Below, in pieces: positions 3,957 to 17,719 of a stretch of 64,000 nt of DNA. Position 1 is the stretch's first letter. Every line of letters starts with the position of its first letter. Under the pieces are notes generated by a model. That model did no database searches. It saw only the letters and a program-made list of their open reading frames with translations, and was not told the origin of the DNA. Position numbers and translations under genes: made by a program. Source of the stretch: Candidatus Parcubacteria bacterium (GTDB lineage: Bacteria > Patescibacteriota > Minisyncoccia > Phycocordibacterales > Zambryskibacteraceae); the NCBI GenBank assembly GCA_019661895.1, contig JAIFWO010000001.1, positions 1,181 through 65,180 of the forward strand, read 5' to 3'.

Positions 3957-4040
3957 GCCGGAGTGGCGGAATGGTAGACGCGCACGACTCAAAATCGTGT
4001 CTCGCAAGGGGTGGAGGTTCGAGTCCTCTCTCCGGCACCA
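3957..4040 (+). tRNA. tRNA-Leu(CAA)
   Basis: Acceptor GCCGGAG/CTCCGGC, anticodon arm CACGA-CTCAAAA-TCGTG, long variable arm, GTTCGAG T-loop, encoded CCA. Confidence 0.96.
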
Positions 4041-4096
4041 CAGATAAAAGGATCGGGTTCATCCCGGGCTTTTTATCTGTCGAGGAGGACGAGAAA

Positions 4097-4167
4097 GCCG
4101 GAGCACGACGGTGCGAGGCGGGGTCGCGGAAATTTCCAGCGGGAAATTATCTGTGACCGAGTCCTCT
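4097..4167 (+). repeat. tRNA-linked structured element, copy 1 (core plus duplicated T-arm sequence)
   Basis: GCC-GGA-GCAC/GTGC-GA-GGC-GG-GGTCGCGGA...TCTGTGACC followed by CGAGTCCTCT, identical to tRNA-Leu 4020-4029. Confidence 0.8.
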
Positions 4168-4201
4168 AGCACAATATATTAAATTCCTATAGTGTATCCC
4201 C

Positions 4202-5098
4202 ATGAAGCCGAAAGTATTGGTGATAGTAGGCTCGACCGCTTCGGGGAAGAGCGCTTTGGCGGTACGACTTGCTAAGAAGTTTAATGGCGAGGTGATTTCA
4301 GCTGATTCTCGCCAGGTGTATAAAGGTTTAAATGTCGGGACGGGCAAGATTACGAAGAAAGAAATGAGCGGTATTCCCCACCACCTCCTCGATGTGGCCG
4401 ATCCTAAAAAGCCATTCTCCGTCTCGGATTACAAAGAACTGACTGAGAAATCTATACGATATATCGTATATAAAGATAAACTGCCCATTATCGTCGGAGG
4501 TGCAGGATTTTACATAGATGCGATAACCGGTCGTGCTACCCTACCGGAAGTGCCGCCGAATAAGAAGCTGAGGAGAGTTTTAGAAAAGAAATCAAAAGAA
4601 GAGTTGTTTAAGATACTCAAAAAGAAAGACCCGAAGAGAGCCGAAATTATTGATAAAGATAATAAGGTAAGACTCGTACGCGCGCTTGAGATCGTAGAAG
4701 CTTTGGGAAAAGTACCTGAGATAAAAAATAATAAAATAAATAATAGGAAATATATTTTCATCGGCCTGAGGCCGGAGCAAAAAGAGCTTGAGAGGAGAAT
4801 TTATAAACGCTTAATAGAGCGCCTGCCAGGCATGATTAGGGAAGCTAAATCCTTGCGCCGGAAAGGCCTAAGCATAAAGAGAATGGAAGCGCTCGGCCTT
4901 GAGTATCGCTATCTGGCGAGATTCTTACAAAACAAGATTACCAAGGAAGAATTCGTCACCCAACTCTTCGCCGAGATTAAAAAGTATTCCAAGCGCCAAT
5001 GGGTGTGGTTTAAACGCAATAAAGAGATTGAGTGGTTTGAACCTAACGAGTTCAAAGAGATTGCGAAATATGCTAGTATCTCGCTCAAGGGCGATTAG
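4202..5098 (+). CDS. miaA: tRNA dimethylallyltransferase
   Basis: GSTASGKS P-loop, ISADSRQVYKGLNVGTGK, IPHHLLDV, YSKRQWVWF. Confidence 0.97.
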   Translation: MKPKVLVIVGSTASGKSALAVRLAKKFNGEVISADSRQVYKGLNVGTGKITKKEMSGIPHHLLDVADPKKPFSVSDYKELTEKSIRYIVYKDKLPIIVGGAGFYIDAITGRATLPEVPPNKKLRRVLEKKSKEELFKILKKKDPKRAEIIDKDNKVRLVRALEIVEALGKVPEIKNNKINNRKYIFIGLRPEQKELERRIYKRLIERLPGMIREAKSLRRKGLSIKRMEALGLEYRYLARFLQNKITKEEFVTQLFAEIKKYSKRQWVWFKRNKEIEWFEPNEFKEIAKYASISLKGD

Positions 5099-5159
5099 TT
5101 TAGTGGTAGAACAGCGGTCTCCAAAACCGCTGGCGAGGGTTCGATTCCTTCATCGCCCG
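5089..5159 (+). tRNA. tRNA-Trp(CCA), overlapping the miaA stop codon
   Basis: GGGCGAT/ATCGCCC acceptor, GCGGT-CTCCAAA-ACCGC anticodon arm, GTTCGATT T-loop. Confidence 0.95.
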
Positions 5160-5212
5160 CAATGATCCGCAAGAATGTCTGGGAGACATTCGCGTGGAGT
5201 ACCAGCGCGTGT

Positions 5213-5320
5213 GCGAGAAGGAATCGAGAGCCGCAGTCCCGCTTCAGACGGGACGAGGCGGGGTCGAGCAAATCCCGAGCACGGGATTATGCGTGACCGA
5301 TTCCTTCATCGCCCGCAATG
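5213..5320 (+). repeat. tRNA-linked structured element, copy 2 (antisense T-arm, core, 23-nt duplication of tRNA 3' end)
   Basis: 5298-5320 is identical to 5142-5164; 5213-5227 is antisense to the tRNA T-arm/acceptor; the conserved core lies between them. Confidence 0.85.
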
Positions 5321-5350
5321 TAAGAAAAAGCCCGGTTGCCCGGGGATTTC

Positions 5351-5524
5351 TTAGGCCTTCTTCTCTTTGTAAACCGTATGCTTCTTCGCGATCGGATTGT
5401 ACTTCTTGACTTCGATCTTGCCTTCGACTGACTTCTTGTTCTTGGTCGAATAATAGGTGTGGCCCTTGCCGACGCCCTTCGGGTCTCCGACGGAGACGAG
5501 CTTTATGAGGTGATCTTGTGACAT
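5351..5524 (-). CDS. rpmG: 50S ribosomal protein L33 (cysteine-free form; below ORF-track cutoff)
   Basis: Manual translation MSQDHLIKLVSVGDPKGVGKGHTYYSTKNKKSVEGKIEVKKYNPIAKKHTVYKEKKA*. Confidence 0.93.
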   Translation of the reverse strand: MSQDHLIKLVSVGDPKGVGKGHTYYSTKNKKSVEGKIEVKKYNPIAKKHTVYKEKKA

Positions 5525-5591
5525 AGGTTATAAGAATACCCAATATGTCAGATTTTGCAAGTAGAGCCAAAATGCTCTAGAATGACCTCAC

Positions 5592-5677
5592 GCGTCGGTG
5601 GTAGAGTGGTCAATTACAACAGACTGTAAATCTGTCGGCTTCGGCCTACGCAGGTTCGAATCCTGCCCGGCGCACCA
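5592..5677 (+). tRNA. tRNA-Tyr(GTA)
   Basis: GCGTCGG/CCGGCGC acceptor, ACAGA-CTGTAAA-TCTGT anticodon arm, variable arm, encoded CCA. Confidence 0.96.
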
Positions 5678-5720
5678 ATACGAAACAAGGTGCTTAATGC
5701 ACCTTTTTCGATTGGTGCGA

Positions 5721-5782
5721 GCCGGAGCGCGACGGCGCGAGGCGGGGTCGCAGAACTTTTCAACAGAAAAGTATCCGTGACC
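5721..5782 (+). repeat. tRNA-linked structured element, copy 3
   Basis: GCC-GGA-GCGC/GCGC-GA-GGC-GG-GGTCGCAGA-ACTTTTC/GAAAAGT-A-TCCGTGACC. Confidence 0.8.
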
Positions 5783-5895
5783 ACAAATACACTTATTTTC
5801 TTAAATAGTAATTGCTTTTTGCCACTCGTAAGCTAGTATGAGGACAGAGCCAGGAAAGGCCAGTTCTATTCAAACCCCATACTGAGGAAACAGGC

Positions 5896-7122
5896 ATGAG
5901 CAACATCATCGACTACTTTGTGAACAGGGACCAATTCGACCTCGCCATTGCCCTCACCAAGCATATGCCGGGAAGCGATCGGGAAAAGCTGCTTGGTCAG
6001 ATCCTCGCACGCGCCCTCAACGAACGGCAAGACGAGGCAGCTACACAAATCTTAGAAATGCTTGGTCGGCCGATCACGGACTCAGAACGAGCGGCGAGCT
6101 GTCGAGCAAGGCTGCGCCAGAGAAACCGTTCTTTAGTGAAGGGTGCTCGGGATGTGGCAGAGCAAGTAACGGACGATGCGTTGCGAGCCCAGTTGCAAAG
6201 AGAAATAGACGTGTCCTGCCTTCATTACGGATTCGTAGAAGAAGTGTCTGTTATGTCGCCGGAAGAAATCATCGACTGGGTCGCCGAGCATCTTCGTCGT
6301 TATGACTTCGAGGCAGTGGTGAGTCCAATCATTAAGTTTTTCTCGATCGACTTCGAGCCTCTTCTCAAGAAGATGCGGGCTGAGGCAGTGACGGCCGGCG
6401 ACTTCGATCTAGCGAGTCGGATCGCAAGCATTTCTGGACAAGGTCTCCAACTTGGCGAACTCATCGAACTTTTCGGAGCGTGCAAGAGCAAGCTGGAGAA
6501 GGATCTAAGAGAGTCCTCTAACAGTCTGTACAGAATGGAAAAACTTGTCAAACTCTTGCCGACCCAGAATAGGAAGTCAGCCAGAAGGTGGATGATTGGT
6601 ATCCATATCCGAGCAGGCAGGACCCGTGACGCTCGTGAGCTTTTGGAAAGCTTGCCCGAGAGAGAGCGGGGCCTCTTTGCGGAACGAATTCTCGCTCGGG
6701 AACTTGATCCTCGGGAGGGAGTCTCGTTTCGAGATGTGTGGGAAACGGAAAAATACTTGGGGAGAGAGCTTACGCTTGATGAAGTGCGCAAGAGGCTCAC
6801 CTTCGTTTTTGTCGACAAAGGTGTGCATTTACGCTTCATCACACGTCTGCCCCAAGCAGAGCAGCCACCTTACCTCGAAAAGTTTGTTGAGGACAAGGTT
6901 AGGTCTCATGACTTACCCGCTGCACTTGAGGCCACTCGGCTCATCCCCCGTGATCTTAAGATCGATGAGCTCTTCACTATGCTCTACAAAGCTAGTGGAT
7001 CATATGATCTCTGGTGTTGCCAACGGACTCCAGAACCACGCATGGTAGAGTCAAGCAGGCAAGCAATAGAAGAGATTGCCCGGCACATCGCGAGTCGATC
7101 TGTTCCCACGCAAGTTGCCTAA
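5896..7122 (+). CDS. Hypothetical alpha-helical repeat protein
   Basis: 408-aa ORF with SD-like GAGG; recurring GRxLTxxE-like motif; hairpin terminator at ~7144-7174. Confidence 0.75.
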   Translation: MSNIIDYFVNRDQFDLAIALTKHMPGSDREKLLGQILARALNERQDEAATQILEMLGRPITDSERAASCRARLRQRNRSLVKGARDVAEQVTDDALRAQLQREIDVSCLHYGFVEEVSVMSPEEIIDWVAEHLRRYDFEAVVSPIIKFFSIDFEPLLKKMRAEAVTAGDFDLASRIASISGQGLQLGELIELFGACKSKLEKDLRESSNSLYRMEKLVKLLPTQNRKSARRWMIGIHIRAGRTRDARELLESLPERERGLFAERILARELDPREGVSFRDVWETEKYLGRELTLDEVRKRLTFVFVDKGVHLRFITRLPQAEQPPYLEKFVEDKVRSHDLPAALEATRLIPRDLKIDELFTMLYKASGSYDLWCCQRTPEPRMVESSRQAIEEIARHIASRSVPTQVA

Positions 7123-7249
7123 CTGTTGTTCCTTGCGATGTCATCCCGCATGTCTTTCAACATGCGGGAGTTTTATATGGGGCACCCTTGAATAATTTAA
7201 GTATAGGGTTCAGAATGGTGCTGGATCTAACTTAACCGGAGAGTCTTTT

Positions 7250-7729
7250 ATGCAAAAGATTGAAGACTTCTTCGGTTTGGCGAAGAAGTTGGCACATTCA
7301 CGATGGTGGTTGTATGAGATCCTCCCACGAGAGGATTACGAACAGGAAGCCTTCCTGGCCTTGGTTCTGGCGTGGGAGAAATTTGATCCCGCTCGAAGGC
7401 TCAAATTCAGCACTTATGCGTATTATCGCATTAAGGGCGCCCTCATCAACGCCGAACGCACTTGGCAAAAGTTCCACCGGAAAACTGGATCTTGGCCTCG
7501 ATTCTCAACCTATAATTTGAATTTCCGGTTCAAGGGGATGACTGAGGCTGATCTCGAACCTCTTGTGGATTTGTTTGAAGGCGAATGGTTCACTGTACCG
7601 GCGAAGATGGTCTTTCTTGAGGGATGTACGGTCGCCGAGACTGCGCAGGCCTGCGGGTATACCAAAAACGCGGTTCATCAGGCTTGTTCCTACTGGCGAA
7701 GAAAGCTGGTGAAGGAACTTGCGAGTTGA
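7250..7729 (+). CDS. Minimal sigma-70 family sigma factor (regions 2 and 4)
   Basis: DYEQEAFLAL...FDPARRLKFSTYAYYRIKG (region 2, FliA/SigF-like) and C-terminal HTH EGCTVAETAQACGYTKNAV. Confidence 0.8.
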   Translation: MQKIEDFFGLAKKLAHSRWWLYEILPREDYEQEAFLALVLAWEKFDPARRLKFSTYAYYRIKGALINAERTWQKFHRKTGSWPRFSTYNLNFRFKGMTEADLEPLVDLFEGEWFTVPAKMVFLEGCTVAETAQACGYTKNAVHQACSYWRRKLVKELAS

Positions 7730-7787
7730 AGAGTCTCATTTGAGACTCTTTTTAATTTACAAAGAAAAAGACCGGATCACTCCGGTC

Positions 7788-8138
7788 CTAGTGCGAGTCG
7801 GCAAGGGCTTTTTGATCCTTCTTCTTTAGCTCCTCTGTCCACAGAGTAGCAAAGTTGATGGGAGGACGAGTTTGTTCGTCCTCGAAGCGTTTGAGCACTT
7901 CGGCAAGAGTGTAGCCGCGCAAAATTGCCGCGTCTACAGGATCTGCGAATTCGAGATCGTGAGTGGCGGCGACCTCTGCGGCGGGCTTGCCTTTCTTGCC
8001 ATTTGGCCGCGGTAGGCTCTTAAGGAAGTCCTGCCACCCATTTTCGGTACCGATCGTACCCTCATTGGGTTTGGAATTGCGACATTCGCACACAAGGTCT
8101 TGTCCGTCGACACGACGAACTCGAATGAACTCTATCAT
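7788..8138 (-). CDS. Hypothetical protein
   Basis: 116-aa ORF followed by bidirectional hairpins (7730-7787). Confidence 0.6.
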   Translation of the reverse strand: MIEFIRVRRVDGQDLVCECRNSKPNEGTIGTENGWQDFLKSLPRPNGKKGKPAAEVAATHDLEFADPVDAAILRGYTLAEVLKRFEDEQTRPPINFATLWTEELKKKDQKALADSH

Positions 8139-8201
8139 CTTTAAACCCCCGATTGATGTTATCCTGAGATATTGTCGCAGACTTACTGTAGAGCCACAAC
8201 T

Positions 8202-10788
<2,587 letters not shown>

Positions 10789-10830
10789 ATTTATAGCCTT
10801 ATTATATGCAATTTTCTAGGAAAATCAAGT

Positions 10831-11628
10831 CTAATGAGCCTGGGAAAGAAGCTTTTGGATGGGAGCAATGGTCAGGTAGGTACTTGGAGGAAGAGTGAGG
10901 TCGTCGTTAGAAGTCTTTAGCCCAACAAGCTCGCCGGAGAGGTTAAGGAGCATGCCTCCGAAGGTCTCGCCTGCGGGGTTCACGTCGGTAGTAGCATGCG
11001 AGGTGTCGACATCCACGGAAAGGACACGCCCAACTGCCACCGATGTCTTCTCGGTACCCTCGAGGGCAATGACAGTTTGGCCTAGCTTGGCCTCAATTTT
11101 AGAGACGCCGACGGTCGGAAATCCTTTCGTCGCATGAGCTGGATCGGCTTGGATCTTGAAGAGCGTTAGATTAGCGATCTCGCTCGTGCTTACAAGCGCG
11201 GCTGGCAAGGTGGTGCCGTCGGCAAGAGTAATACTGTAAGAACCTCCGGCAATAAGCTCGCGCTTGTCTGAGAGTACGAAGCCGCTCTTGGTCACGACCA
11301 CGCCGAGGGCGTAGAACTGTCTGTTGCCGCTGGCGTCGATGGGGGTATGGATGCGCACCAAGGCATCAGCGCCCTTGGCAGTCGAGCTCTGGATGGCCTC
11401 GTCGACGCCGACGATAGTGACCTCGCGCACGGTGTTGGTCGAAGTGGCGCTTGGCACGACCTTCTCGACGGTATGCTCGATGACGCGATCGATAGTTTGG
11501 GTAACACTCTGAGGAGCCTGGGCCAGGAGCGAGGTGGTAATAATACCCGTGGCAATAGAGGTGATGAAGCTTATAAGAAGCGTGAGCAAAATGATTTGCG
11601 TCTTTGTAAGATCTTCTACAGTGACCAT
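10831..11628 (-). CDS. Membrane-anchored trypsin-like (HtrA-type) protein, probably catalytically inactive
   Basis: N-terminal TM helix; GVVVTKSGFVL and GGMLLNLSGELVG fold motifs; catalytic His and Ser positions not conserved. Confidence 0.7.
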   Translation of the reverse strand: MVTVEDLTKTQIILLTLLISFITSIATGIITTSLLAQAPQSVTQTIDRVIEHTVEKVVPSATSTNTVREVTIVGVDEAIQSSTAKGADALVRIHTPIDASGNRQFYALGVVVTKSGFVLSDKRELIAGGSYSITLADGTTLPAALVSTSEIANLTLFKIQADPAHATKGFPTVGVSKIEAKLGQTVIALEGTEKTSVAVGRVLSVDVDTSHATTDVNPAGETFGGMLLNLSGELVGLKTSNDDLTLPPSTYLTIAPIQKLLSQAH

Positions 11629-11635
11629 AAAGCGA

Positions 11636-12703
11636 TTATATCACCACTTCCCTTAAGAGACGAGCGGCCTCTAAAACATCTTTCTTGCTCGTCTCCGGAC
11701 CGAAGGAGAAGCGCAAGGCCTCCCGCTCCTCTGTATTAATATTCTTGCAGGAACTTCCGGTAGAGACGCAGACACCGCGCTCATTTAATTTGACGGCCAA
11801 GAATTCGTGGAGAAGTCCCGGGAAGGACATGCTGACAATACTCGGCACGCTCAGAGCGGGAGAATTGAAAATGGCTTGGGGCAAAAGTCTCTTTACCTCC
11901 TCTATGAAAGTTTTCTTGATACTGCTTAGCCTTTCAAATTGCTCCTCCCTCTGACCCTGAGCCTCTTCGAGCGCTTGGGCGAACTCCTTTATAGCCTCCA
12001 CATTCTCCGTACCAGGACGCAATCCCCTCTCCTGCCCTCCGCCAAAGAGGATTGGTTTAATCTTTACCCCAGGCCGCACGACGAGGAGCCCTGCCCCCTT
12101 CGGACCGCCGACCTTGCTGGCATCAAGAGTCATGAGATCAACGCCGAGCTTCAAGACGTCGACAGAGAGCACGGTGGCCGCTTGGCTGGCATCGGTGTGG
12201 ATATATGGGAGCTTACTCCCCCGTTTCTTCCTATATTCTTCTACAAGACGAGAGATCTTAGAGATCGGATGCACGGCTCCAGTCTCGTTGTTGACGTACA
12301 TGAGAGAGATGAGCACCGTACTCTCTTTAATGGCATGCAAAACTTTTTGCGGATCAAGAGTGCCGTCCTCTCTCATATCTACCACGCTCACCTCTCCGCC
12401 GCGCCGTACTACTTCCTTGGCACACTCGCGCACGGCCGGATGCTCGACGTTCGAGATAACGATATGCGGTTTTAATATTTTTTCTCTATGCGCTTCGAAG
12501 ACTCCGAGAAGCGCAAGATTATCCGACTCCGTTCCTCCAGAGGTAAAGATGATGTCTCGCGCTTGGACATGAAGCACTCGGGCGATGCGCGTGCGAGCTT
12601 CTTCGAGCGCGTGCTTAGCCTCTACCCCCTCGTCATATATGGCTGAAGGATTCTCCCGCCCAGCCGCATGGTCGAGGAAGATTATTTTCTTAAAGAGATT
12701 CAT
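11636..12703 (-). CDS. Cysteine desulfurase (IscS/NifS family)
   Basis: FTSGGTESDN, VEHPAV, HTDASQ, PLP Lys in DASKVGGPKG, catalytic Cys in STGSSC. Confidence 0.92.
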   Translation of the reverse strand: MNLFKKIIFLDHAAGRENPSAIYDEGVEAKHALEEARTRIARVLHVQARDIIFTSGGTESDNLALLGVFEAHREKILKPHIVISNVEHPAVRECAKEVVRRGGEVSVVDMREDGTLDPQKVLHAIKESTVLISLMYVNNETGAVHPISKISRLVEEYRKKRGSKLPYIHTDASQAATVLSVDVLKLGVDLMTLDASKVGGPKGAGLLVVRPGVKIKPILFGGGQERGLRPGTENVEAIKEFAQALEEAQGQREEQFERLSSIKKTFIEEVKRLLPQAIFNSPALSVPSIVSMSFPGLLHEFLAVKLNERGVCVSTGSSCKNINTEEREALRFSFGPETSKKDVLEAARLLREVVI

Positions 12704-12779
12704 GGTTGAAAGATAACACATTTTCATATTTTTATTTGGGCTTTTGTTTAGCCATTTTTCGTGTTATTATGAACTTCTT

Positions 12780-14264
12780 ATGAAGGTATCTCGTCCTCCA
12801 GTGGTGGCGGTCATGGGACACATCGACCACGGCAAGTCGACGCTTCTTGACTATATAAGGAAAAGTAATGTGGTCGAGAGCGAAGCCGGCGGCATTACCC
12901 AGCACGTCTCGGCCTACGAGATCACTCACCCGCGAGAGGATGGCCGCCCTGCCAAGATCACCTTCCTCGACACTCCTGGGCACGAAGCCTTCCAGGGCAT
13001 CCGCGCTCGCGGTGCACGCGCGGCCGACATTGGCGTGCTGGTCGTCTCAGCGGAGGACGGGGTGAAGCCGCAAACGCTCGAGGCCTATAAACGCATCCAG
13101 GAATCCGAACTCCCCTACATTGTCGCTATCACCAAGATAGACAAGACTTCCGCGGACATTGACCGAGCCAAGCAATCTTTGGCGGAGAATGATATTTTCG
13201 TCGAAGGATACGGAGGCGACGTACCCGTAGTAGCCCTCTCTGCCAAAACGGGTGAAGGGGTGAAAGAACTTTTGGACATGATCCTTCTCATTGCAGAGCT
13301 CGAGAACTTCGTGGGAGAGCACGACCGCTGGGGCTCGGGCACTATCATTGAGAGCCGCTTGGATCCAAAGAAGGGCATCACCATCGTAGGCGTGATCAAG
13401 GACGGCACAGTGAGCGTTGGACAGGTGGCCGCCTCGGCTGGCGCTATGGCACCGATCCGCTTCCTCCTCACCGCCGAGGGCGAGCAGGTGAAGACACTCA
13501 CCTTCTCCTCCCCGGTGCAGATCGTCGGGTGGGACAACTTGCCTCAGGTCGGTGCCGTCTTCGAGATATTTGATGACAAAGTAGCCGCGCAATTTTATGC
13601 CGAGTCGGAAGCGGCCAAGTCGCACACAAGGAAGACGGAGGTGAAGATCGAGGAAGGCATGACTATCCTGCCGATCATCCTCAAGGCCGACACAGCCGGG
13701 AGCCTCGAAGCTATTCATTATGAACTTGGCAAACTCTCGCACGAGCGCATCGTACCGAAGATCGTCCTCTCCGCTGTCGGCACGGTGAGCGAAGGCGACG
13801 TGAAGAGCGCCATGACCACCGAGGGCACGAAGATCTTCGGCTTCAATACCAAAGTCGATCCGCAAGCGGCCGCCTTGGCGGAGAGGAGCGCGGTGGTCAT
13901 CGAGACCTTCGATATTATCTATAAACTCACCGAGAGAGTCGAAGCTCTCCTCTTAGAACAAGAACCGCGCATCCAGGTCGAGGAGGTGGCGGGCTCCGCC
14001 AAGATCCTGAAGGTCTTTAGCATTCAGAAGGACAAGCAAGTGGCGGGCGCCCGCATGCAGTCGGGCATGTTCGAGAAGAATGCTTTGGTCCGCATCATGC
14101 GGCGCGAGGAAGAGATCGGCCGCGGCAAAGTCAAGGAACTCCAGCAATCGAAGATCGACGTCGATACTGTCTCGGAGGGTTCCGAGTTCGGCATGATGCT
14201 TGAGGCCAAGGCCGAAGTGGCTCCGGGAGACATTTTGGAGAGGATCATCGTGGTGACCAAATAA
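12780..14264 (+). CDS. infB: Translation initiation factor IF-2 (short form)
   Basis: [35 protein letters not shown]. Confidence 0.97.
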
Positions 14265-14290
14265 TTGCCGAAATAATTTGCCAAAATAAC

Positions 14291-14617
14291 TTGAAAGAGA
14301 TCAAACGAGAGAAGATCGAGGAAATACTCCACCGCCTGGCGGCGCAGTTCGTGCGCGAGGAGTCTACCAACGCCTCGCTCATTACCGTCACTCGCGTCGA
14401 GATGACTCCCGCCGGCAAGGTGGCGACCATCTACTTCACTACCCTCCCGGACTCTGGCCAAGATACCGCCGAGAAATTCTTAGACCGGAAGACTCCCGAG
14501 TTCAAACACTATGTCCACGAGCACTCGCGCCTAGGCATCATCCCCTATCTCAAATTTAAAATCGATTACGGCGAACGCAACAGACAGCGCTTGGATGAAT
14601 TAGGAAGAGGGTCTTAA
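14291..14617 (+). CDS. rbfA: Ribosome-binding factor A
   Basis: Follows infB; ITVTRVEMT and IPYLKFKID motifs. Confidence 0.85.
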   Translation: MKEIKREKIEEILHRLAAQFVREESTNASLITVTRVEMTPAGKVATIYFTTLPDSGQDTAEKFLDRKTPEFKHYVHEHSRLGIIPYLKFKIDYGERNRQRLDELGRGS

Positions 14618-14639
14618 TTTGTGATAATGTAGTTCAATC

Positions 14640-14714
14640 GGCCTAGTCGCCAAGTAGTAAGGCAACTCTCTGCAAAAGAGTTATACGGCGGTGCGATTCC
14701 GCCCTAGGCCTCCA
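14640..14714 (+). tRNA. tRNA-Cys(GCA)
   Basis: GGCCTAG/CTAGGCC acceptor, ACTCT-CTGCAAA-AGAGT anticodon arm, encoded CCA; T-loop TGCGATT is atypical. Confidence 0.92.
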
Positions 14715-14735
14715 GCTTCGCATATGCGGAGCATT

Positions 14736-14819
14736 GCCCGAGTGGCGAAATTGGTATACGCGCAAGACTTAAAATTTTGTGGCCGCAAGGCCGTGTGGGT
14801 TCGATTCCCACCTCGGGCA
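14736..14819 (+). tRNA. tRNA-Leu(TAA)
   Basis: GCCCGAG/CTCGGGC acceptor, CTTAAAA anticodon loop, variable arm. Confidence 0.95.
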
Positions 14820-14821
14820 CT

Positions 14822-14892
14822 GCGAGATTAGTTTAGTGGTAGAACTGGTGCTTCCCAAGCATCGGGCGCGAGTTCGATTCTCGCATCTCGCA
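14822..14892 (+). tRNA. tRNA-Gly(CCC)
   Basis: GCGAGAT/ATCTCGC acceptor, TTCCCAA anticodon loop. Confidence 0.95.
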
Positions 14893-14941
14893 TTTAGAGC
14901 AGATTGAAAAATAATCGCATTTCTGAAATACTAGTCATTGC

Positions 14942-15014
14942 GCGCCCATAACTCAGTCGGTAGAGTAGCCGCCTCTTAAGCGGAATGTCGTTGGTTCGAA
15001 TCCAACTGGGCGCA
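14942..15014 (+). tRNA. tRNA-Lys(CTT)
   Basis: GCGCCCA/TGGGCGC acceptor, CTCTTAA anticodon loop, GTTCGAAT T-loop. Confidence 0.94.
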
Positions 15015-15063
15015 CAAAAGACACAAACATCCCGCCTGCGCGGGATTTTGTGCTTTTGTGCGA

Positions 15064-15151
15064 GGCGCAGGTATATCGAGGACAGCGGTCCGAGATACCG
15101 AGCCGGGGTCGAGAAAAATTATGAACGGCGGTGAATAATTTATTCGTAACC
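15064..15151 (+). repeat. tRNA-linked structured element, copy 4
   Basis: GGC-GCA-GGTAT...ATACC-GA-GCC-GG-GGTCG...TAACC; closing stem swapped (GGC/GCC) relative to the other copies. Confidence 0.75.
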
Positions 15152-15180
15152 ACCGAAATATGATACTATTCGAATATATT

Positions 15181-15374: not shown

Positions 15375-16532
15375 ATGGCAGCCAGCGAACAAAAAGTGCC
15401 CGAACAGAAGGATGGCATAACTATCTCGAAGCCGCCCGAGGCTCAGATGTTAGCCGTCGTAATCGGCAAGAATGGAATCGGCGGACTTGATCAGATAGTG
15501 GCTTCCATTAAAGGCTACCACTTCCTCTATCAAGAGTATGCTACAGATCCTCACGATCCGGCCACTGATGTACTCGATGAGTGGCAGAAGTGGGAGCTCT
15601 ACCCGGACAAAGATCCGGTGACCAAAGAGGTTTACTATGACCCGAGGAAAAAGAAACCCGATGTTCTTGAGAAAGAACTCGGCTTGATCCTCTTCGGTCC
15701 CGGTCGATCTCTCCACATTCCAAAGATCAAGTACTCAAAGTGGGAGAAGAAGCCGGGCGGTACTGAGTTCGAAGTGACCTCGAAGGATCGCTTGGACTCG
15801 CCGTATTTCTTCTTCCAGTACACCATGGCGATCCCCGCCGTTAAGGTCGAGATCGAGGGAAACGCGACTGTCGACATCATTGTCAATATCGTTATCCGCT
15901 TGATCAACCCCTACAAGGCTATCTTCCTTGCCGGTGGATTCGAGTCACTGGTCGACGCTGCAGTCGAAGGAGCAATCCGAGAGCACGTCAGCCAAGAAGG
16001 GTTCGAGAAGCTTAAGAAGGAGCTGGAGCAAAGCAAAGAAGGCTTGAACCATCGGATCATGGAGTTGACCAATCTGGCGCCCGCTACCCCAACTCCTCAA
16101 GCTCTCACCCAAGGGAACGCACCAGGTCAGGCAGACGTAGATGACGGCGGGTTCCGCCATAAGTTTGGCATCGAGATCATCCATGTCAACTTCGTCCGCT
16201 TCGATCTCTCAGAGGGAAATGCAGAGTTCAAAAAGGCTCTCTCGCAGAAAGCTATCAATAAGCTCAATGCGGAAGCTGCGGATGACAAGAAGCGAGAGAC
16301 CATCACGCTAGCGCAAGGAAAGGCAGAAGGTGCCAGGATCATGACCGAGGCTTATGGTAGCGGTGAGGCTGCGGCTCAGGTTCAGCAGTCTGAGAACTAC
16401 GGTGAGGCTATCCGAGACACTCAGGCCACAACTGTTGTCATTGGTGGAACGGGCACGCCCATAGGTATTACCACACCCTCTGGTAATCCTCAGGACCGCT
16501 CTCGCCGAGACAGAGATAGAGGGAGAAGTTAG
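15375..16532 (+). CDS. SPFH/band-7-like domain protein
   Basis: SD AGGAG; beta-rich VDIIVNIVIRLINPYKA, FGIEIIHVNFVRFD, followed by an Ala/Glu-rich coiled coil (AQGKAEGARI). Confidence 0.7.
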   Translation: MAASEQKVPEQKDGITISKPPEAQMLAVVIGKNGIGGLDQIVASIKGYHFLYQEYATDPHDPATDVLDEWQKWELYPDKDPVTKEVYYDPRKKKPDVLEKELGLILFGPGRSLHIPKIKYSKWEKKPGGTEFEVTSKDRLDSPYFFFQYTMAIPAVKVEIEGNATVDIIVNIVIRLINPYKAIFLAGGFESLVDAAVEGAIREHVSQEGFEKLKKELEQSKEGLNHRIMELTNLAPATPTPQALTQGNAPGQADVDDGGFRHKFGIEIIHVNFVRFDLSEGNAEFKKALSQKAINKLNAEAADDKKRETITLAQGKAEGARIMTEAYGSGEAAAQVQQSENYGEAIRDTQATTVVIGGTGTPIGITTPSGNPQDRSRRDRDRGRS

Positions 16533-16573
16533 CCATTTTTAGGCAGCCGATTCGCAAGGATCGGCTTTTTCTA

Positions 16574-16601
16574 TTGACAATAATGCTATATATGATATAA
16601 T
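16574..16601 (+). promoter_or_regulatory. Sigma70 promoter
   Basis: TTGACA-16 nt-TATAAT upstream of the 16649 ORF. Confidence 0.75.
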
Positions 16602-16648
16602 CAAACAAGACATCTGTTTGCTCTCTTACACTCAATTCCGAGGTTAGT

Positions 16649-17719
16649 ATGACGGCTCCCAGTAACCCACCGGGCCAACAGTCACCGCTTGCAGGCGCAA
16701 GAGGAAACCTTCCTCCGCGGCCACAGACTCCAGTAGGCAGCGGCTCGGCCATCGGGAGGTTCTTGAAAAAGTGGCTAGTGGATAACGCGAAGTGGACTTT
16801 GCCGCCACTCATCGTCGCCGTCCTCATCGCCAGTTGGATTGTCTACACGATGGTAGGCCACGGAGCATTGAAGTTTGCCTTCACGTTCCTGGGCATTCTT
16901 CTTGCCTTTGGCCTCTACCACCTGACACATCAGACAGTCGGACAGCGATTCAACATGCCCGGCGTCAGATCGTCGATGGTGATAATCGTGTTGATGATCC
17001 CGATCTTCTGTTGGTTCTTCTGGGCCATCAAACCAGAATGGTACGAAGGCTGGAGAAATTCAACCTTCTTCCCACTCATGATCATCACGGCCTTGGTTCT
17101 TGGATGGCTCTCTGGTTCGAAGAACTCAGTAGCCAATGTGGCACGTACAGCTCTCATCCTGCTCTGTCTCGTTGCCATCGGCAAGGGCGCTTACGAGAAG
17201 GTCACCCAAGAACGGGATGAGCAACAAAAGAAAGAGGCGGCTAAGCAAGTAGCCGAACAGAAAGCACGCAGCGATGCTCTCGCCAATGCCGTCTACATCA
17301 TGTCGGAGACGGACAGCGCCAGGTGCATCGACACTTCGTTCGTCGTCCCGGTCGATAGCAGAAAAAGAGCGATCATTCCCGCCGGTAAGTACCGGACAAC
17401 GTTCTGGAGAGTCGGACACACCTTGCCCTATGGCATTACTGGCGACGACGGAGTTGAAGTCGAACTTTGGCCTCAGAGCCAGACTCCGGTGATGATGTCA
17501 GACTCAAAAACCTGGCAACTGCGGGCCTTGGATGGAAAGACGGGAGAGGTCACAGTCCGCATCTTCCCAGACACTGCCAAAGGATTTCCGATCGAGATGT
17601 GTCCAAAGGCAAAGATAGCGCCCGCGGACACGACCCATGGCACTGTCCCTGATACTGTCCAGAAACCTCCGCTCCCAAGTCCGCGTTTACCACTACGCAA
17701 AGCCGCCACCCTGTACTAG
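16649..17719 (+). CDS. Hypothetical multi-pass membrane protein with C-terminal soluble domain
   Basis: About 5 hydrophobic helices in the N-terminal half; stop codon inside terminator hairpin 17700-17730. Confidence 0.75.
   Translation: MTAPSNPPGQQSPLAGARGNLPPRPQTPVGSGSAIGRFLKKWLVDNAKWTLPPLIVAVLIASWIVYTMVGHGALKFAFTFLGILLAFGLYHLTHQTVGQRFNMPGVRSSMVIIVLMIPIFCWFFWAIKPEWYEGWRNSTFFPLMIITALVLGWLSGSKNSVANVARTALILLCLVAIGKGAYEKVTQERDEQQKKEAAKQVAEQKARSDALANAVYIMSETDSARCIDTSFVVPVDSRKRAIIPAGKYRTTFWRVGHTLPYGITGDDGVEVELWPQSQTPVMMSDSKTWQLRALDGKTGEVTVRIFPDTAKGFPIEMCPKAKIAPADTTHGTVPDTVQKPPLPSPRLPLRKAATLY

Follow-up and report, generated by a model that had tools for sequence, protein, structure and literature searches.

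Four folded cores behind tRNA genes

The window analysed here is a 64,000-nucleotide stretch from a Candidatus Parcubacteria bacterium (GenBank assembly GCA_019661895.1, contig JAIFWO010000001.1, positions 1,181 to 65,180 of the forward strand). The genes in it for tRNA-Leu(CAA), tRNA-Trp, tRNA-Tyr and tRNA-Lys(CTT) are each followed by a copy of the same folded, gene-less core of 62-90 bases. Judging from sequence comparisons, we believe that the four cores belong to a real, uncatalogued element that is most likely mobile. An earlier note, made from the letters of the window, had described four cores behind four tRNAs and on their strand. ARAGORN and Rfam place the four tRNA genes where it had put them, all on the + strand, and the cores are in the sequence as described. 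So are the inner stems that differ but stay paired, the Lys copy's swap to GGC/GCC, the hairpins that lie upstream, and the stretches antisense to the host tRNA (which we will call guides). The cores start and end one base before the positions given in the note, whose final base (C) belongs to the host target and not to the element. The note did not mention that a direct repeat of the end of the host tRNA lies behind every core in the window.

Copy 1 follows tRNA-Leu(CAA) (3957..4040, + strand; ARAGORN and Rfam). Its target is G-T-T at 4017-4019, and the junction is before C56 of the tRNA (position 4020). A terminator-like hairpin (4040..4080, +) accompanies this copy; by eye, there is none at 14 empty Leu sites. 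The guide (4085..4095, +) is antisense to the T-loop target and covers both of its T bases; TC is swapped to GA in it, which gives tandem G-A pairs. The core (4096..4157, +) consists of a stem P2 with a GGA/GA internal loop, a GG linker, and a stem P3 with a G-T pair and a bulged A, and it ends with GTGAC. Behind it lies the displaced old 3' end of tRNA-Leu (4158..4175, +), with 10 exact bases and then decay, upstream of miaA. Copy 2 follows tRNA-Trp (5089..5160, +; ARAGORN), with the junction before C56 (5142). Here a spacer hairpin (5162..5216, +; by eye, related hairpins lie behind filled Trp and Ser genes elsewhere) precedes the guide (5217..5228, +), which is antisense to the T-loop and T-stem. 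The core (5229..5297, +) runs into a 23-base exact direct repeat (5298..5320, +) of 5142-5164, the 3' end of tRNA-Trp.

In the other two copies, the guide is antisense to the acceptor end. Copy 3 follows tRNA-Tyr (5592..5677, +; ARAGORN), whose target is G-C-G at 5670-5672 and whose junction is before C72 (5673). The hairpin plus guide (5680..5719, +; guide at 5711-5719) and the core (5720..5781, +) are followed by a short repeat (5782..5790, +) that matches 5673-5681 at 8 of 9 bases, the first three being exact. Copy 4 follows tRNA-Lys(CTT) (14942..15015, +; ARAGORN), with the junction before C72 (15013) and with a hairpin plus guide (15021..15062, +; guide at 15053-15062) that also covers the trailer. 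Its core (15063..15150, +) is of the long form, with GGC/GCC at the base of P2 and with GTAAC at its end, and the repeat of the Lys acceptor end (15151..15153, +) is of three exact bases. A 12-base word from the core, with at most one mismatch, occurs six times in the window (four of them exact), as compared to 0.79 expected, and none of 100 shuffles reached six.

To describe the element we use copies from this genome, from 41 relatives, and from large collections, the last of these being among the matches listed. The search patterns fix the conserved core, so the conservation of those bases is partly by construction. We left out chance or duplicate loci (L061, L245, L246, L136, and L265), 16 of 185 copies in which our parser missed the start of P2, and 18 of the 127 in-gene (form B) copies described below. 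The relatives' tallies and one of 168 copies include an unpublished genome (G018), and no conclusion hinges on it.

Across these copies, the element begins with [A/G/T]GCC and ends with a fixed GTRAC. The next base is host sequence, such as T behind rplK and A behind rplL. P2 keeps its GGA/GA internal loop, and P3 keeps a fixed G-T pair and the bulged A, which is present in 167/167 copies, although the first search pattern demanded its position for most of them. Among 41 distinct cores of 63 columns, 98.2% of cells are paired and 15 of the 23 pairs have double-sided changes. None of 500 shuffles reached the observed values (this control ignores relatedness, and the tested structure was derived from the same sequences), and slid controls were 33-47% paired. 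RNAalifold gives the same fold, with 22 pairs. The earlier note's view that selection acts on the fold is supported, for the fold of the tRNA strand.

At one pair in P3, G-T occurs 61 times and A-C occurs three times, which identifies the tRNA strand as the folding one; in 51/167 copies, the pair next to it is G-A. The loops are chiefly AGCA and GACG, and GNRA and UNCG loops together account for 5 of 336, versus 7 of 35 tetraloops in a rough control set of terminators. The loop composition therefore leans weakly towards single-stranded DNA as the folded species; we consider single-stranded DNA to be probable and RNA to be a serious possibility. The stem formed by the guide does not have an excess of G-T pairs (22 G-T versus 37 A-C). 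The predicted folds of the Trp and Leu copies show a three-way junction of the core with the guide/host stem, and in the minimum-energy fold of the Trp precursor, the guide invades the T-arm.

Guides, direct repeats, and two forms of insertion

All four copies in the window are of what we call form A, which does not have a left hairpin of its own: about 10 antisense bases of the target precede the core, and a direct repeat of the host gene, starting at C56 or C72 of the tRNA, adjoins its right end. The repeat is 2 to 41 bases long, and it is at least 8 bases in 72 of 168 copies, as compared to 2.7% for permuted flanks. Guide and flank pair in a single register, with pairing of 0.69-0.82 at positions 1-5 (permuted maxima, 0.45-0.58). 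If we consider the 78 copies whose 18-base repeat is almost perfect (8 mismatches over 1404 positions; this set includes a few tandem or mis-parsed copies), then the guide matches for 9-11 bases and falls to background after that. Because the match ends there, the antisense stretch is a short target-specific guide and not a full antisense arm. The earlier note was correct that this stretch is complementary to its own tRNA, but there is a second partner downstream of the core. We also considered error-prone copying as the origin of the far part of the guide and rejected it, as identity just falls to background past about 10 bases.

The target rule is clearest for the copies at acceptor ends. 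In 24/24 of these, the guide matches two variable bases (N-N), with six dinucleotides represented (permuted mean 8.1, maximum 16), and in 24/24 these bases are preceded by G. In the same genomes, 21 of 35 tRNAs with C72 have that G. The guides also vary with the site: in one genome, an identical 44-base right part is found behind tRNA-Gly, tRNA-Arg, and the transfer-messenger RNA (tmRNA), with different guides, and the guide of the copy behind rplL folds directly back on the end of the gene.

In form B, the element has its own left hairpin (TGAG...CGCAA), lies inside its target, and is joined directly after a G. We found 127 copies, and in 107 of the 109 that could be parsed, the left end is preceded by G. 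An intact copy of the site lies nearby for 49 of them, and in 46 of these 49 the gap is exactly two bases. Both forms share the same G-N-N register: form B replaces N-N, and in form A, N-N stays in place and has its mirror copy in the guide. Form B occurs in both orientations and breaks the gene that it enters. (With respect to tRNAs within 250 bases, 42 copies are on the same strand, 9 are on the opposite strand, and 58 have none.) A copy in uvrC (L442, L003) is in frame and adds a peptide of about 28 residues, and other copies disrupt the start of a glycosidase gene, which restarts downstream. At six loci (L476, L484, L523, L543, L548, and L556), the 3' end of a tRNA is present as forward, reverse, and forward copies, with form B in the third.

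Distribution of the element and candidates for a helper enzyme

In this genome, we found 8 copies with the exact pattern and 13 with a covariance model (E <= 0.01), two of which are of a sister family. The model matches 33 of the 41 relatives, with up to 20 copies, and the strict pattern matches 24 of the 41 relatives and, in the phylum at large, 22 of 401 genomes, including two chance matches. Among the collection matches listed, most are from Patescibacteria and some are from Elusimicrobiota. In Elusimicrobiota, the model matches 13 of 61 genomes, with the same anatomy and with both forms present. Plasmid and phage collections gave no match. A loose pattern gave at least 40 loci in IMG/VR, of which, by eye, one is a true element and the rest are chance. 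Assemblies from four soil metagenomes covered it thinly and in fragments, and no joint in them was usable.

The element is patchy even at orthologous genes. At 20 miaA loci of the genus, it is found behind 1 of 15 tRNA-Leu(CAA) genes, 6 of 16 tRNA-Trp genes (plus one remnant), and 1 of 11 tRNA-Tyr genes. Many of the empty Leu genes lead directly into miaA, and no hairpin lies between them, which means that the hairpin comes in together with the element and that the repeat downstream is what remains of the original gene end. Among 165 copies, a tRNA lies within 140 bases for 102, farther away for 8, and not within 330 bases for 55. The same-strand enrichment behind tRNAs that the earlier note led us to expect is strong: 101 of the 102 nearby tRNAs are on the strand of the element. 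The 55 tRNA-less copies include those at the ends of tmRNA, rpsI, and topA genes, those on truncated contigs, and form B. All told, the non-tRNA hosts are tmRNA, rplK, rplL, rpsI, and topA, and both tandem copies and protein-gene targets occur. Of the two explanations in the earlier note, the non-autonomous element gains support from this patchiness, the direct repeats, and the two forms of insertion. The other, a tRNA-trailer RNA that controls maturation, fares poorly, as most orthologous tRNAs do not have the element and it is also present at non-tRNA sites and within genes.

The sister family has the same two-stem shape with other conserved bases (genome G000, contig C20 17595-17653 and contig C31 11301-11359; L435-L438, L294, L166, and L421). 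Inverted copies of the AT-rich sequence around it lie on its two sides, and it is mostly not linked to tRNAs. Genome G026 has 16 model matches, and the five that we inspected are all of this family.

Genes may lie between a tRNA and the element. At L284/L424 (genome G001), L420, L433, and L419, a single gene of unknown kind lies between a tRNA and an element or between two near-identical units, and the units around such genes each end in a decayed tRNA 3' end. At tRNA-Asp, this arrangement makes up a small cassette array, and likewise at G000 C2 near 16519. An integron-like reading was set aside, as there is no dedicated integrase, and it remains a lead only. The tRNA-Asp of this genus also has an unusual T-loop region (G000 C2 15697-15769; L312, L284). 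In the window, the Tyr element is followed at 5896-7729 by genes for a 408-residue protein (weak TPR match only) and a 159-residue sigma-70-like protein, and the content of this slot differs among relatives. Behind tRNA-Leu(TAG), 15375-17719 encodes 385- and 356-residue proteins without a Pfam match. On the - strand, 8202-10788 holds an apparently split ClpB-like frame of 94 + 762 residues, named by eye from its translation.

We looked for an enzyme that might act in trans. Reverse transcriptases are present in 14 of the 41 relatives and Y1 nucleases in 20, a small GIY-YIG protein is present in most, and most have one tyrosine recombinase (38 of the 41 have at most one). The earlier note had suggested looking for a co-occurring tyrosine recombinase, HUH nuclease, or reverse transcriptase, and none of these tracked the element. 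Reverse transcriptases were not found in most of the genomes with many copies, such as G024, G037, G029, and G015. Clustering of adjacent reading frames returned housekeeping genes and translations of the element itself, with no recurring enzyme. We saw no recurring integrase in or beside the units, although serine recombinases and IS110 enzymes were not searched for by family. The covariance model had no match in 30 Y1 loci, and its lone match near a reverse transcriptase gene is a sister-family motif behind rplS, which we rejected. At L166 (genome G004), a reverse transcriptase gene follows a 129-residue gene that resembles the accessory protein of diversity-generating retroelements, near a sister-family motif. 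The RAYT-like Y1 genes (L170-L199, L452) are mostly bracketed by their own 18-24-base palindromes, as in TIRtrons.

The best candidate for the helper is a small GIY-YIG nuclease of the Ssn-like kind, because these genes are found at tRNA genes too, often with a hairpin-split 5' fragment, and because their relatives cut single-stranded DNA; we propose it tentatively, by analogy. Genes of about 80 residues of this kind lie between a hairpin-split tRNA 5' fragment and an intact tRNA (L241, which is G000 C2 15337-15549; L325; L315; L303; and L284), and by eye, a relative of theirs lies inside a 16S rRNA gene (L306). Another enzyme, perhaps of the host, is possible too, if a little less so. A reverse transcriptase with target priming seems unlikely, and an HUH/Y1 nuclease seems more doubtful still.

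How the element might move and how it compares to known systems

That the element is mobile seems very probable. We favor, with moderate confidence, a non-autonomous mobile element whose folded, gene-less core is inserted at a two-base staggered cut by an enzyme acting in trans. In the scheme we have in mind, which has about an even chance of being correct in its details, each strand would receive a nick, with N-N between the two nicks and thus a stagger of two bases. Form B would arise when the element bridges both halves, so that N-N is lost. Form A would arise when the core becomes linked to both strands on the right, capping that half with a hairpin, and copying or opening this hairpin would yield antisense target, core, and target, and hence a target-specific guide. 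The rplL guide, a direct fold-back of the end of the gene, is what such a cap predicts. Repair synthesis would then rebuild the gene end upstream and the old end would stay downstream as the direct repeat. Because repair would restore the tRNA, form A could survive at essential genes. If all of this were correct, then the element might represent a protein-less class that writes its own guide from each target via a hairpin-capped end, rebuilds the gene that it enters, and may capture genes between copies to give tRNA-anchored cassette arrays; taken as a whole, we regard this as possible but doubtful.

Several observations weigh against our preferred explanation. Movement itself was not observed, and filled and empty sites were compared within the genus and not in same-species pairs. 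No helper emerged when reverse transcriptases, Y1 nucleases, GIY-YIG proteins, and tyrosine recombinases were compared to copy number across the 41 relatives. Few of 270 element loci have such an enzyme nearby (8 GIY-YIG, 2 Y1, and 1 reverse transcriptase), and none of these genes is flush with the element in the loci we inspected by eye. (Old copies of an element can outlive the helper.) For form B, 60 of the 109 copies have no intact copy of the site nearby and cannot be scored, 3 of the 49 gaps are 0 or 3, and the target G could be common to element and target. Form A is nearly always on the transcribed strand, which would fit a role as RNA too. Finally, the guide is not always a plain copy of the target, as TC is swapped to GA in 26 of the 86 copies whose flank begins with GA, and different tRNAs share the hairpins to the left of the guide, which the simple cap model leaves unexplained.

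These last two observations keep alive an explanation in which the donor carries the guide: a single-stranded circle (gene end, hairpin, guide, and core) would integrate as in IS200/IS605 or TnpA-REP systems, the guide would pick the target by pairing, and mutation of the guide would retarget it. The recurring GA swap does look inherited, the guide has a fixed length of about 10 bases, and guide-directed cleavage is shown for IS608 and one REP system (PMC8266576). However, guides match unrelated targets (topA, rplL), the rplL guide folds back on its own gene end, and identical right parts have different guides within one genome. Also, exchange of a circle does not predict a guide-less form B with two bases lost, and the Y1 genes here have their own, unrelated palindromes. 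We consider this explanation to be unlikely. We give a lower probability to a tiny retroelement, whose RNA would be copied by a reverse transcriptase at a nick in the target, in the style of R2 or as what is left of a group II intron. With the target's G counted in, form B starts with GTGAG; it ends with AC, its bulged A is near the 3' end, and the folded strand is the transcribed strand. Furthermore, the Bombyx R2 enzyme in vitro makes its second-strand cut 2 bp upstream of its first-strand cut (PMC2718515), and a loss of two bases, as in form B, would follow from such a stagger. Against this, most high-copy genomes had no reverse transcriptase that we could find, RF00029 did not match the window cores at E up to 10 or nine other loci at E up to 5, and the junctions of form B are precise, while the same source describes the 5' junctions of Drosophila R2 as mostly blunt and variable.

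We think it slightly less probable again that the host keeps the element as a trailer RNA that sequesters the T-arm or acceptor stem and tunes tRNA maturation. The strand bias at tRNAs (101/102), the strong covariation, and the invasion of the T-arm in the Trp precursor would all fit. But the element is not conserved behind orthologous tRNAs (1/15, 6/16, and 1/11) and has sites behind non-tRNA genes and inside genes. Complementarity that ends at about 10 bases, a guide stem without a G-T excess, and the scarcity of GNRA and UNCG loops are also contrary to this idea. The least probable explanation, with a very small chance of being right, is that the copies are not mobile, and that break repair and template switches that correct palindromes left scars which happened to converge on one shape. 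Many short hairpins have been inserted at tRNA fragments in these genomes, and a switch of template could produce what looks like paired changes. This explanation is already largely refuted by the precise ends, by the fixed loss of two bases, and by an invariant core, with its G-T and G-A pairs, that two phyla share. Our preferred explanation remains the non-autonomous element with a helper in trans.

Patescibacteria have tiny genomes and few known transposons, yet there can be up to about 20 copies of this element in one of them. The footprint that it leaves (a fixed G-N-N site with either a two-base loss or a target-matched 10-base arm) fits no insertion chemistry that we were able to match in bacteria, so the helper may have a new way of joining folded single strands to the ends of DNA, and the junction rules are sharp enough for testing in vitro. 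The element also explains why tRNA ends are duplicated, why there are pseudo-tRNA fragments, and why peptides are inserted in frame, all of which confuse the annotation of these genomes.

Like the earlier note, we could not assign the element to a named family. In Rfam 15, the window has only tRNAs at the gathering score, with no credible match to the cores even at E up to 10, nor to nine other loci at E up to 5. A literature search of titles and abstract openings found no description of it, although supplementary motif catalogues could hold one. Several known systems come close to it. Like the element, the NTS/SRM repeats of Ssn GIY-YIG nucleases (PMC11893778) and CGTC-tagged palindromes (PMC3733652) are hairpins that are specific to a strand, have an orientation, and carry a fixed tag at one of their ends. 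Ssn nucleases cut single-stranded DNA beside oriented hairpins, and SRMs are single 20-50-base hairpins that flank the nuclease gene. By eye, the opposite strand of our element begins with GTCAC, near the GTC-W-Y start of SRMs, and these genomes commonly have small single-domain GIY-YIG genes, which often lie at tRNA genes. In contrast to SRMs, the element has a two-stem core plus a host-derived third stem, its tagged strand is the worse-folding strand, and we did not see it flanking the GIY-YIG genes that we inspected. The words "tRNA" and "Patescibacteria" do not occur in PMC11893778.

REP/REPIN sequences and TIRtrons with TnpA-REP (PMC8266576, PMC3733652, and PMC3116915) are also gene-less folded repeats downstream of genes, with a functional bulge and a short guide logic. 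The start of P3 (GGGGTCG) is one base off from the TIR motif GGGGWSAS. However, the element has no GTAG tag, as its ends are [A/G/T]GCC and GTRAC, and it does not lie beside Y1 genes, which carry their own palindromes. It also follows the G-N-N rule, with either a two-base loss or duplication of the target plus an inverted copy. Unlike a miniature inverted-repeat transposable element, form A has a host-derived closing stem and a repeat of no fixed length, and form B loses two bases. The retrotransposon R2 (PMC2718515) shares a preference for RNA genes, a fixed 3' junction, and a two-base stagger in vitro, but it is eukaryotic, autonomous, and kilobases long, and no reverse transcriptase is linked to our element. 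Similarly, the GIY-YIG homing endonucleases I-TevI and I-BmoI nick two bases apart beside a required G (PMC12774661); their G follows N-N, while on our element's strand it precedes N-N, and no such gene is linked. As for group II introns, besides the lack of a match to domain V/VI (RF00029), the first base of the element is A, G, or T, followed by a G that is paired with C, and the bulged A is nine bases from the end, which differs from the intron consensus.

Integrase islands and prophages enter tRNA and tmRNA genes at the T-loop or at the 3' end. Our element uses the same sub-sites (before C56 or C72), and as with the islands, the gene is rebuilt upstream and a displaced tRNA 3' fragment lies downstream. 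It differs from them in being about 140-170 bases long, in having no integrase, in carrying an antisense copy of the site, and in having a second form that destroys the site. Overall, the element works like a REP/REPIN or SRM repeat and lands like a tRNA island, but it departs from each of them in defining features.

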